Source: Alphaproteobacteria bacterium (GTDB lineage Bacteria; Pseudomonadota; Alphaproteobacteria; SP197). Taken from it: DNA of 64,000 nt. The stretch is taken from NCBI GenBank assembly GCA_965116515.1, contig OZ220705.1:2399565-2463564 (forward strand), in the 5' to 3' direction. The position numbers and the translations under genes were made by a program. This document shows positions 55,293 to 59,866 of this stretch, piece after piece. The number at the start of each line of letters is the position of its first letter. The first letter of the stretch is position 1. The notes beneath the pieces are model-generated. The model saw only the letters and a list, made by a program, of their open reading frames with translations, was not told the origin of the DNA and made no database searches.

Positions 55293-57074
55293 CTAGCGGG
55301 TTCCGCCAAAACCTGCGAGGAGATCGACTGTCGGCGTTTGGTCATTGAGCATGCCCGCCATTTCCTCGTGAGCAGGACCGAAGAACGAGCCTGCAATATG
55401 GCCGTCCGTGTCGGCAAACGAATTTCCTGTGATCTCAATGTCGTACATGAGATTTGGAGACCGGAAGCCACTCGTTTCGCCGTCATCATGAACGGTAAGG
55501 TTGTCAAACCGTACGGTGCCGTCGAGTGTCGCCAAGCCAACGCCAAGCTCGGCGTCGCCAGATACCGGCGGCAAATGTGCACTGCCAAGGTCAACACCAA
55601 TGAGCGAACCTGTCCATGTAGCGCTTCCCAACGAAGCTGTAGTGTGCAGACCGGCCAGGGTCATGGACGGAGCCACACCAAATGCATCGGCACCGGCCCG
55701 CAGTTGATCCCGCGCCGAGATGTCCATGCCATCGTCTTCGTACCCAAGGTCCCGCTCCACGCCTGCGCCCCAGGCGCTGTACCGGCCCCAAGCTCCATAT
55801 CCGTACACTTCCAGATCCGATGCCGTGTCTGCCTCGAGGAGTTCGTATCCGACGTCATCGAGATATGCGAAGTCCAGTTCAAAGGGTTCGTACCCTTCTC
55901 TCTGGTCAACACAATACGCCATGATAGATTCACAGACGCCCAAATGGCTATAATCCACGGTCGAACCTGGGGTGTGTGGTGACACCGCACTTCGGTCGGC
56001 ATCGAGCCACTGAAACGGAACGGAGTTGTCGCCATTGACCCTCGTCGATTCCGGCCCTTCGAAGGTGGCGTCCCGATAGTTCATGTAACGCTCTATGCTC
56101 GGAACGTTCCATCCGCCTTGATGATCCGCTACGCCGATAACATGACCTATTTCGTGGGCCAACACATGGACAAACCACCAATTGCCTATCGTTTGCCGTT
56201 CGTTGATGTTGTTCTGCGACAGGGTCATCACTCCACGCCAGGGTTCGTAGTCATCCTGAGCGATGTCGGCGTCTTGTGGACCAGCTGAAGAAAGTGGATC
56301 GGTCCTGGCGTGAACAACCGTGATCAAGACACCATCCGTTTCGACGTTTTCCGTGTAACTGACGGTGACCGGTACCGCACCCGCATGTTCCGGCGCAGTT
56401 TGAATGGTCGTTCCTGCCGTGACCGTATGCGTGCCGAAATCGTCAAGCAGCCGGCGCGACCAGGACTTCCCGGCCCTCTCTGCCTGCGCACGCGATACAG
56501 GATCGATATCCGGAGCAAATCGCCAGTCGAATTCAATGTTGAGCGTTCCCGCAGGACCGCCCTTCCATTGTCCGTACGTGATTCCGCCGCGTTCACCGAT
56601 GACCTCGATATCATCAGGAACAACATTGCGCAATATTGTTCCGGAGATAGCGGGGTCTGACTCGGCAGCATCAATCAAATCTGCTATCGACATTTTCCGG
56701 GTATCGACAGACGGCTGGCTGACCGGCATCAGGCTCAATATGGTTCTCAACGCCTCCGGGTCGTTCCAGTGGTCGAGAAGGTCCTCGGCGGCAGGATTGT
56801 TGCGCCATCCGATCGCATGTGGTTGTGGCGCCTCCCCCATCTCGTCCACCATGGGATCGTCATCCACCATGGGATCGTCATCCACCATGGGATCGTCATC
56901 CACCATGGGATCGTCATCCATCACGGGGTCGTCTTCCACCATGGGATCGTCGCTGGGCATCATGGTCTCGCCGTCCGTGACCGGACCGCTGCCGCCGCCA
57001 CAACCGTAAAGCCCCAATGCGAGTACTGAGATCGCTGCGAACGACGTGATGCATTCCTTGCCAGGTGCGGTCAT
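55293..57074 (-). CDS. Surface lipoprotein carrying a metzincin-type zinc metalloprotease domain and a TbpB-like C-terminal beta-barrel (putative Slam substrate).
   Basis: Lipobox LGLYGC. DDDPMV hexapeptide repeats. HEIGHVIGVADH (HExxHxxGxxH) with a downstream Met-turn-like SIMAY. C-terminal ...GSFFGPAHEEMAGMLND...AGFGGTR. Start at ATG 57074 after RBS AAGGAAGGGAAG. Confidence 0.8.
   Translation of the reverse strand: MTAPGKECITSFAAISVLALGLYGCGGGSGPVTDGETMMPSDDPMVEDDPVMDDDPMVDDDPMVDDDPMVDDDPMVDEMGEAPQPHAIGWRNNPAAEDLLDHWNDPEALRTILSLMPVSQPSVDTRKMSIADLIDAAESDPAISGTILRNVVPDDIEVIGERGGITYGQWKGGPAGTLNIEFDWRFAPDIDPVSRAQAERAGKSWSRRLLDDFGTHTVTAGTTIQTAPEHAGAVPVTVSYTENVETDGVLITVVHARTDPLSSAGPQDADIAQDDYEPWRGVMTLSQNNINERQTIGNWWFVHVLAHEIGHVIGVADHQGGWNVPSIERYMNYRDATFEGPESTRVNGDNSVPFQWLDADRSAVSPHTPGSTVDYSHLGVCESIMAYCVDQREGYEPFELDFAYLDDVGYELLEADTASDLEVYGYGAWGRYSAWGAGVERDLGYEDDGMDISARDQLRAGADAFGVAPSMTLAGLHTTASLGSATWTGSLIGVDLGSAHLPPVSGDAELGVGLATLDGTVRFDNLTVHDDGETSGFRSPNLMYDIEITGNSFADTDGHIAGSFFGPAHEEMAGMLNDQTPTVDLLAGFGGTR
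56836..56940 (-). repeat. 18-bp in-frame tandem repeat (~6 copies) encoding the (D/E)DDPMV linker repeats of the metzincin lipoprotein.
   Basis: caccatgggatcgtcatc repeated contiguously on the plus strand. Confidence 0.7.
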
Positions 57075-57154
57075 TTCAGTCTTCCCTTCCTTCATCGTTG
57101 CCCACCCGCGTCATGCGGGCTTCTTTCCATGGTTTTGCCTGGTACAAAAGGAAC

Positions 57155-58516: not shown

Positions 58517-58588
58517 CGGAACATCAAGAGAAGGGCAGCCTTCCGGCTGCCCTTCCTCCCATTTGCATCGACCGACCTGGCGCGGCTG

Positions 58589-59866
58589 TCACTGCTTGTA
58601 GCCGGCGAAGGCTCCCACGAAACTGACGCTGCGGTCGGCAGAACGTCCGGCCGCCGTCCCGCCAACGGACCCCGGCTTGCCGTCCGCCTCGCTGTTTCCG
58701 AAGAACTGTCCGCCCCATCGGCCGGTAAAGCCAAGCCCATTGACGTTGCCGCTCAACAGCCCCTCGAAGAAGCCGCTGTTCGAAGACCCGATACTGGCCC
58801 GACCCAAGCTCAGCGAGCCCGAAACGAGTTCGCCGTCTGATTCGATGCCGGTGACCGAGCCACCGATCGACCCCAGGTCGCTTCGCCCGCCGAAATCAGC
58901 CTCCAGGGTCACGTCGCCGTTCCAGTATCCTGCTCCTGCTTCACCCTCTGAGGCGTATGTGTACACGCCTACCGCCCCCCCGACGTAACGCGCCGTGCCT
59001 TGCAGAGCCAGGAGGTTGCTCTGGCGGAACGGGTCGTTGCCGTCAGCGAAAGCGCCGAGCACGACATCATCGGCGCTGGTCGCGTTGTCGGGTACGAACA
59101 GCCAGACTCCGCCTGCGAGATAGTCGGTGTCGGGGCCTGTGTGGACAATGCCGCTGTCGGGCGTAAAGGTGACCCCTGATATCGAGTTGACGGTGCCGCT
59201 GGATATGTTGGTCGCCGGGTTGTACGTGCCGTCTATGTCCCAGTCGCAGCTGCCAGCGCAGGAGAATGTACCGGGCACTCCGTCCAGGGACCCACGACCG
59301 TTGCCGCGCAAGACGTCACCAAAACTCACGTTGCCGCTATGCGATATCCGATCACTTGCAGTAACTGTTTGCGGGGTGCCTGCAGTCGTCGTCCTCTGCG
59401 GCGCTTCGATATCGGACAAGACATCGACATAAAGGGTTCCGCCGTTGGTGCGCTTGTGCAGTTCCTGGCCATCCCATGGATCGCTGGCGTCAATCGCTAC
59501 GGGATTGCCGTCACTCGTGCTGATGGACCACAAGGAGCCGTTGCTGATGGAGTAACTGTTCCGGCTGGTTCCATGCGAAGCTGTCACGGATACGCGATCT
59601 GCGGTGATGCCGTTGTTCACGTTCGATGACTGCGTGACGCTGCCCGAGCGGGGTCTGGCATCGGCGGCTCGGCTGGCGGCTGTTGCTGCGTAGCCGGCGT
59701 TGGTGGGACTCAAGCTGGCAAAGTCTGTTTCGGAACCGGCAGTTGGCGGGGTCATGTCTTCCGTCATCGACCCCGTGCCGCTACTGCCGCCCCCGCCACA
59801 TCCCGCCAAGAAAACTGCGATGGATGCGACAACCGCGATTCCAGTAAAACAGTTGCGCTTGGACAT
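58589..59866 (-). CDS. Surface lipoprotein with a TbpB-like C-terminal beta-barrel (second putative Slam substrate); no recognisable enzymatic domain.
   Basis: Lipobox LAGCGG. Ser/Thr/Gly-rich passenger. C-terminal ...GRWGGQFFGNSEADGKPGSVGGTAAGRS..SFVGAFAGYKQ. RBS AAGGAGA. Confidence 0.75.
   Translation of the reverse strand: MSKRNCFTGIAVVASIAVFLAGCGGGGSSGTGSMTEDMTPPTAGSETDFASLSPTNAGYAATAASRAADARPRSGSVTQSSNVNNGITADRVSVTASHGTSRNSYSISNGSLWSISTSDGNPVAIDASDPWDGQELHKRTNGGTLYVDVLSDIEAPQRTTTAGTPQTVTASDRISHSGNVSFGDVLRGNGRGSLDGVPGTFSCAGSCDWDIDGTYNPATNISSGTVNSISGVTFTPDSGIVHTGPDTDYLAGGVWLFVPDNATSADDVVLGAFADGNDPFRQSNLLALQGTARYVGGAVGVYTYASEGEAGAGYWNGDVTLEADFGGRSDLGSIGGSVTGIESDGELVSGSLSLGRASIGSSNSGFFEGLLSGNVNGLGFTGRWGGQFFGNSEADGKPGSVGGTAAGRSADRSVSFVGAFAGYKQ

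Follow-up and report, generated by a model that had tools for sequence, protein, structure and literature searches.

The window analysed here is a 64,000-nt stretch of an Alphaproteobacteria bacterium (assembly GCA_965116515.1, contig OZ220705.1, positions 2,399,565 to 2,463,564). Its minus strand carries, between 55293 and 59866, three consecutive open reading frames (ORFs), A, B and C, that we read with moderate confidence as a Slam (type 11 secretion) cassette encoding a pair of cargo lipoproteins, one of which, C, would be a lipid-anchored zinc protease at the cell surface. Gene A (58589..59866) encodes a 425-aa lipoprotein, gene B (57155..58516) a 453-aa Slam or type 11 secretion system (T11SS) outer-membrane protein, and gene C (55293..57095) a 593–600-aa lipoprotein in which an anchor and a stalk precede a metzincin domain and then a handle and barrel. 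The intergenic gaps are 72 bp and 59–80 bp. A first-pass annotation of the sequence by a model had described three same-strand genes here, and all three were recovered on the minus strand with the coordinates it gave. Gene C more likely starts at ATG 57074 than at ATG 57095, as judged from a purine-rich, Shine-Dalgarno-like stretch upstream and from alignment with the N-termini of homologues. A near-identical locus (99.5% nucleotide identity; L004) is present in the public assembly ENA ERZ25084387, with A, B and C all called.

By its sequence, gene B is a Slam, a TPR+DUF560 outer-membrane protein as first annotated. Residues 164–453 match the Pfam SlipAM/DUF560 profile (PF04575) over positions 1–288 of 288 (7.5e-20; 72.1 bits, cutoff 22), and the N-terminal part matches TPR_19 (34.7 bits, cutoff 25; 2.3e-8); the specific TPR_Slam model was sub-threshold (18.9/35.2). 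The order of domains is a signal peptide (a hydrophobic N-terminus judged by eye), a periplasmic TPR domain and the DUF560 (SlipAM) barrel. Among 8000 candidates scored there were 2111 significant homologues, some of which are named at source as 'surface lipoprotein assembly modifier'. Translocation of cargo by B is predicted.

The central part of C (residues ~97–425; 55821..56807, minus strand) is predicted, by structure and conservation, to be a leishmanolysin-like metzincin catalytic domain. AlphaFold2 models of A and C were built on family alignments and are confident except in the N-terminal linkers (C, pLDDT 85, pTM 0.79; A, pLDDT 81, pTM 0.69). The model of C has a metzincin fold followed by a C-terminal handle and barrel, the two elements that the first-pass annotation had expected, and leishmanolysin was the top match in the fold search. 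The HExxHxxG of C reads HEIGHVIG and lies on the predicted active-site helix 305–320, followed by G321; its HEIGH (56142..56156, minus strand) would provide two zinc-binding histidines and the catalytic glutamate. Across the window protein and 120 homologues (121 sequences), H314 is present in 120, E315 in 119, H318 in 121 and G321 in 116, a pattern that speaks against a non-catalytic context for HEIGH. Downstream, in and beside the segment HLGVCESIMAY (55914..55946, minus strand), is a second conserved cluster: D381 (118/121), H384 (120/121), the cysteine pair C388 and C395 (119/121 each), M392 (110/121) and Y394 (116/121). Conservation and the fold match make H384 the probable third zinc ligand, and the fold match suggests that M392, in the Met-turn M392-A-Y394, would lie below the zinc site, in agreement with the Met-turn-like SIMAY noted earlier.

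H384 sits 66 residues past H318, and this spacing is 60–70 residues across the family, giving a signature of HExxHxxG, 60–70 residues and DxxHxGxC..M.YC. The short metzincin motif HExxHxxGxxH, which had been assigned to C in the first pass, was rejected: the literal motif is HEIGHVIGVADH, with Asp and not His at +6, and the +6/+7 columns are variable (D324 and H325 in the window protein; S, G, N or a gap in others). The HExxHxxG portion of the assignment stands, and the terminal histidine does not, the third ligand more likely being the distal H384. The zinc ligands of GP63 are His264, His268 and His334, with Met345, and the His268–His334 spacing is likewise 66.

No Pfam or NCBIfam peptidase family matched C at threshold; the matches to M10, M12, M7, M8 and M6 were all below cutoff. 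Of the families suggested for a check at the outset, M10, M7 and TbpB_B_D all stayed below their cutoffs. Peptidase_M8 (PF01457) gave no match to the window protein at E <= 1 and matched only one of 44 C-family members (E = 0.041). The M8 hallmarks are HExxH, a separate third histidine and a downstream Met-turn (PMC6899020). Membership of M8 or of another curated peptidase family was rejected, and we file the domain as a new metzincin family of leishmanolysin-like architecture, outside M8.

Both A and C have a lipobox by inspection, a canonical LAGC then GGG in A and LYGC then GGG in C, with a family consensus of LxxCGGGG. For C, signal peptide and lipobox (MTAPGKECITSFAAISVLALGLYGC; 57000..57074, minus strand) were taken from the translation, and homologues carry LxxCGGGG at the same position. 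Sorting of C to the outer membrane is expected, given the glycine after the lipobox cysteine. In A, the residues from the lipobox to about 45 form a disordered Gly/Ser linker, after which come a beta-rich domain (~46–244) and a TbpB-lobe-like handle plus barrel (~245–425). In C, a three-stranded handle (429–473) and an eight-strand barrel (491–599) occupy 55296..55820 (minus strand) and are presumed to be the Slam-targeting domain.

The predicted structures of A and C both end in the handle and eight-strand barrel fold found in experimentally verified Slam/T11SS cargo. Fold comparison scores for C were 13.9 for NHBA, 13.7 for hemophilin, 12.9 for TbpB, 12.7 for fHbp and 12.1 for HpuA, with LbpB and PmSLP also matched; those for A were 14.2 for the TbpB C-lobe, 13.9 for fHbp, 13.8 for hemophilin, 13.6 for HpuA and 13.0 for NHBA. 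Foldseek concurred for the C barrel (TbpB, 3e-6). A profile of 44 C-family sequences searched against the PDB retrieved TbpB (2.9e-4), LbpB and NHBA by way of the penultimate strand 'GGFYGPxAEEmaG', and all 44 aligned members matched TbpB_B_D weakly (best E = 1e-4). Gene A gave no match to Pfam TbpB_B_D or NCBIfam slam_lipo. Sequence kinship of the A and C barrels was tried and rejected (hhalign probability 2.5%; no BLASTP match of A against C). The earlier description of two lipoproteins with the same barrel type therefore holds for the lipoboxes and for the fold only, the two barrels being not detectably related by profile-profile comparison.

In members with enough sequence after it, the protease domain is always joined to such a barrel. 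A phmmer search with the domain, run over all 1.84 billion cluster representatives, gave only 187 proteins at E <= 1e-3, 72 of them at E <= 1e-30. Sixty-four representatives had a near-complete protease domain, and a barrel was detected with family hidden Markov models (HMMs) in 52 of the 52 that had at least 140 residues after the domain, most of these beginning with a lipobox. The protease and the Slam-type barrel are thus an obligate pair. Some members of the family are giants (P0396, P0436, P0438, P0475 and the gene at 6623..9991 of locus L015), in which a single chain of 1100–2000 aa combines two or three copies of the metzincin domain with three to five barrels. Beside the closest C orthologue, at 7277..9394 of locus L018, is a gene for a 705-aa protein that joins a Beta-lactamase-fold (serine hydrolase) domain to a TbpB-type barrel, a fusion suggesting that enzymatic Slam-type cargo is not confined to metzincins.

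Between the anchor and the protease domain, C carries a stalk of acidic Pro/Met repeats, (DDDPMV)n, for which Tandem Repeats Finder gave 5.9 tandem copies of an 18-bp unit in the DNA (56845..56951, minus strand). The stalk is predicted to be disordered (pLDDT < 50 at residues 9–86 of the model). The stalk of the 99.5% identical L004 is shorter by one repeat unit, and homologues have instead GDGDGMMP repeats or one to several Cys-containing modules of ~45 residues. A disordered spacer of variable length would be expected of an enzyme held out from the cell surface, and the stalks fit surface display.

Five points weigh against C as a Slam-displayed protease. A Slam HMM made from 120 homologues was run on the C-family loci and on loci fetched by their Slam gene; apart from the Slam-fetched loci, the window and its twin L004 alone gave matches, and a Slam gene was absent from the flanks of 20 of 20 other C-family loci (L001–L003 and L005–L020, of which three are genomic, thirteen metagenomic and three found by contig look-up, together with L026). 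The curated Slam-cargo models were not reached by C (TbpB_B_D, 17.9 bits, cutoff 26; NCBIfam slam_lipo, 24, cutoff 80), nor was any Pfam peptidase family at threshold. The Tyr at -2 of the C lipobox is unusual, and a folded, disulfide-containing enzyme domain of ~330 residues is without precedent as a Slam passenger. With no Slam at the 20 other loci, gene linkage supports C as Slam cargo in this lineage only, and a conserved Slam–C operon was rejected (0/20, with close orthologues in a different conserved neighbourhood). It is mainly from the barrel, with Slam adjacency in this lineage added, that we infer C to be Slam cargo.

This distribution is also what would be seen if C were a lipoprotein protease independent of this Slam, being either on the periplasmic face or exported by another route, with A as the only cognate cargo and the adjacency of C a product of island rearrangement. 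The closest C orthologues (74–86% identity; three loci) have an APH kinase gene on one side and hydantoinase B/A genes on the other, and no Slam lies within 10 kb of them. Around the A-B-C locus of the window there are remnants of transposases and fragments of pseudogenes. A-type genes, on the other hand, are recurrent Slam neighbours: one lies directly upstream of a Slam 89% identical to B in two other contigs (L023 and L024), and at least 12 contig sizes, several of them of short contigs, are common to the A-family and B-homologue match lists. Linkage to a Slam gene recurs for the A type, and for C is seen in the window and L004 only. Set against this alternative, the protease domain is never without a TbpB-type barrel where one could be scored, and the only documented role of that barrel is Slam/T11SS targeting and display; long disordered stalks also make little sense on a periplasmic enzyme. 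Slam1 of Neisseria serves unlinked cargo genes as well. That C does not use this Slam is considered unlikely.

The usual partner of Slam is thus the A family, while genes of the C and A types tend to occur together. On a separate contig of 5.3 Mb (ERZ25069711; L026, 6001..10278), from an independent genome, a C-type gene is followed directly by an A-type gene, an adjacency that counts in favour of a Slam cassette with C as cargo. Another barrel lipoprotein gene lies there on the opposite strand, with an ankyrin-repeat-like ORF nearby and no Slam within 6 kb. The same clustering of C- and A-type genes in two independent genomes, and the long, repetitive and variable stalks, would also suit a Slam-displayed C that acts as a sheddase, cutting the stalks of A, of itself or of other surface lipoproteins. 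NalP of Neisseria, a lipoprotein protease, releases NHBA and LbpB in this manner. Most C-family loci, however, have no A-type neighbour, and a substrate is not readable from sequence, so a sheddase role is held to be quite improbable. A catalytically dead metzincin-like domain, serving as a binding module like the effectors of other Slam cargo, would accord with the facts that all characterised Slam/T11SS cargo are binding proteins and that C reaches no curated peptidase model, but it is very improbable given the retention of the catalytic Glu and of every proposed metal ligand in 119–121 of the 121 sequences, and of the Met-turn in 110 of them, the pattern expected under selection for catalysis.

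For the Slam cassette with C as a surface zinc protease, we infer that the cargo is lipidated, depends on Slam and is exposed at the surface, and that C is catalytically active on a substrate, along the following lines. A and C would be exported by Sec and then lipidated at the lipobox cysteine. LolA would transfer them to the outer membrane, with Skp keeping the chain unfolded, and Slam would recognise the barrel as the C-terminal specificity element. The chain would then be threaded through Slam and fold outside, the lipid anchor being flipped to the outer leaflet. Unfolded, C-terminus-directed translocation through Slam is the model proposed for TbpB and Slam1 (PMC9090332). Once outside, C would be a metzincin-clan zinc endopeptidase (HExxHxxG, a flap of ~62 residues, the distal third His and the Met-turn), held off the membrane by its variable acidic repeat stalk on a triacyl anchor. 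It would be a bacterial counterpart of GP63, which is anchored by glycosylphosphatidylinositol (GPI), and would most likely target host (sponge) or environmental proteins. The analogy with GP63 makes proteins of the host matrix or of host recognition candidate substrates, and that with NalP the stalks of surface lipoproteins; both are leads only. Export in the unfolded state would keep C inactive inside the cell and, speculatively, may explain why no propeptide is obvious.

The C family comes largely from marine-sponge microbiomes. Six of the 13 metagenome C-family loci have accession prefixes MKWU, LXNJ or LXNI, and the papers reporting these records describe metagenomes of the Mediterranean sponges Aplysina aerophoba, Petrosia ficiformis and Sarcotragus foetidus. 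Named relatives are metagenome-assembled genomes (MAGs) labelled Alphaproteobacteria, Rhodospirillaceae, Deltaproteobacteria, Nitrospira and Nitrospirales. Several assemblies of Ca. Synechococcus spongiarum, a cyanobacterial sponge symbiont, encode a Slam with 57% identity to B (for example MWLE01000026.1, L022, 10001..11383, where the Slam/DUF560 gene is followed by a DUF1036 gene); the flanking cyanobacterial genes, Ycf81 and two ClpP, speak against a binning error. In the published surveys, T11SS is presented as a proteobacterial system. A literature search that did not cover subscription journals found no paper linking sponge symbionts and Slam.

A wider reading, which we put forward tentatively, is that barrel-tagged metzincins are the first enzymatic class of Slam/T11SS cargo, a sponge-microbiome family that spread horizontally with Slam across phyla (cargo in Alpha-, Gamma- and Deltaproteobacteria and in Nitrospirota; Slam in Cyanobacteria). 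They would possibly have a GP63-like, host-facing role, remodelling host matrix or blunting host recognition and phagocytosis, and T11SS would then be a general means of displaying enzymes at the surface, with the serine hydrolase fusion at L018 as a further example.

A GC-rich hairpin with a 12-bp stem (58529..58556, minus strand), found in a scan for terminator-like sites, lies in the 72-bp gap between the A stop and the Slam gene start. Acting as an attenuator or a partial terminator, it may set the cargo:translocon ratio, although terminator-like sites in the region were not more numerous than the shuffled expectation. No TonB-dependent receptor gene was seen at the A-B-C locus. In L023 and L024 (685..11362), the A-type and Slam pair stands beside TrwC relaxase, serine recombinase and toxin-antitoxin genes, neighbours suggesting that an integrative mobile element may carry the A–Slam cassette.

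The remainder of the window holds genes for MttB, a dimethylglycine-dehydrogenase-like protein and a sulfatase, followed by integrase and surface-protein genes. These include the integrase (25428..26564), a DDE_3 transposase (33525..34640) and, on the minus strand, an S8 subtilase lipoprotein (36270..38813), a 2076-aa Calx-beta/LapA protein (39834..46064) and an endonuclease/exonuclease/phosphatase (EEP)-family protein (52082..54259). The twin locus L004 has an extra DDE_3 transposase that is not in the window. The Calx-beta and EEP proteins share a C-terminal domain of ~300 residues (28% identity), for which the match to an autotransporter-barrel model was only marginal; NCBIfam gave no match to the C-terminal domains of the S8 protein and of the protein labelled D. 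A third barrel lipoprotein gene (48105..49052, minus strand) is split over two frames, with a signal peptide and lipobox (LALSGCGG) in one and a TbpB-like barrel (48113..48862) in another, and is a frameshift or a pseudogene. A copy of its barrel part, with 77–84% nucleotide identity, lies at 51599..52049, just downstream of the EEP gene. The interval of ~1 kb between C and the EEP gene (54256..55290) contains only short, overlapping ORFs that look like mobile-element remnants. No tRNA was found in the window beside the integrase as an island boundary. Overall, the surroundings look like a surface-protein island, which fits a sponge symbiont.

If the reading of C as a Slam-displayed protease is correct, the Slam route extends to enzymes, and sponge symbionts, in which the molecules of host tolerance are largely unknown, would possess a surface protease. 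Leishmania, an intracellular parasite, has GP63 as a lipid-anchored protease on its surface, and the structural parallel with C offers a concrete and testable hypothesis. It also poses a mechanistic question, since a zinc enzyme of ~330 residues would be threaded unfolded through Slam and assembled outside, a route that, if used, could replace a propeptide. The barrel could also be put to use as a transferable tag with which enzymes are displayed on the surface of Gram-negative cells.

The locus resembles the Slam systems of Neisseria, Moraxella and Pasteurella (Slam1/TbpB and Slam2/HpuA; cargo TbpB, LbpB, fHbp, HpuA, NHBA and PmSLP) in having a TPR+DUF560 gene beside lipoproteins built of a lipobox, linker, handle and eight-strand barrel. 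Unlike cargo of the Neisseria type, A and C have a TbpB_B_D similarity below the Pfam threshold. Known Slam hosts are mucosal pathogens of animals, whereas the A and C families belong to MAGs associated with marine sponges. Known Slam effectors bind transferrin, lactoferrin, haemoglobin, heparin or complement factors, whereas the effector of C is predicted to be an enzyme; characterised Slam/T11SS cargo have been described as binding metals, haem, complement regulators or glycans, and the system as mainly host-mucosal. The model of C is also like the soluble and novel T11SS cargo (hemophilin/HrpC, NilC and Pls/TepS; Grossman et al. 2021, 2025), in which a variable N-terminal effector and a pedestal precede the C-terminal barrel. 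The cargo catalogue of Grossman et al. comprises ~10 architectures, none of them enzymatic, and has no word starting 'metallo', whereas C contains an enzyme domain. Their survey was of Proteobacteria only; the C family is also found in Nitrospirales and Nitrospira MAGs, and a B-like Slam in Ca. Synechococcus spongiarum. A full-text literature search, with subscription journals not covered, took in the 2025 cargo catalogue and the two cargo surveys, Hooda 2017 and Grossman 2021, and found no protease or other enzyme described as Slam/T11SS cargo, which agrees with the earlier view that a protease would lie outside the well-described cases.

Two surface proteases are comparable to C. Leishmanolysin/GP63 (MEROPS M8; PDB 1LML) aligns with C over 205 of its 465 residues at 16% identity, and both have a long insert from the motif Gly to the third His, followed by a Met-turn. 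GP63 is anchored by a C-terminal GPI and C, as predicted, by an N-terminal triacyl group, and a cysteine-switch propeptide is not evident in C. NalP of Neisseria meningitidis is, as C is predicted to be, a lipidated protease on a Gram-negative outer surface; it has been counted among the surface lipoproteins of Neisseria and assigned a role in extracellular proteolysis (PMC5449769). It differs in being a serine protease with its own autotransporter barrel and no Slam, while C is without a membrane-spanning barrel of its own. We rate the export system and the targeting domain of the A-B-C locus as known, the proposed passenger class as new, and the taxonomic and ecological range as unexpected.

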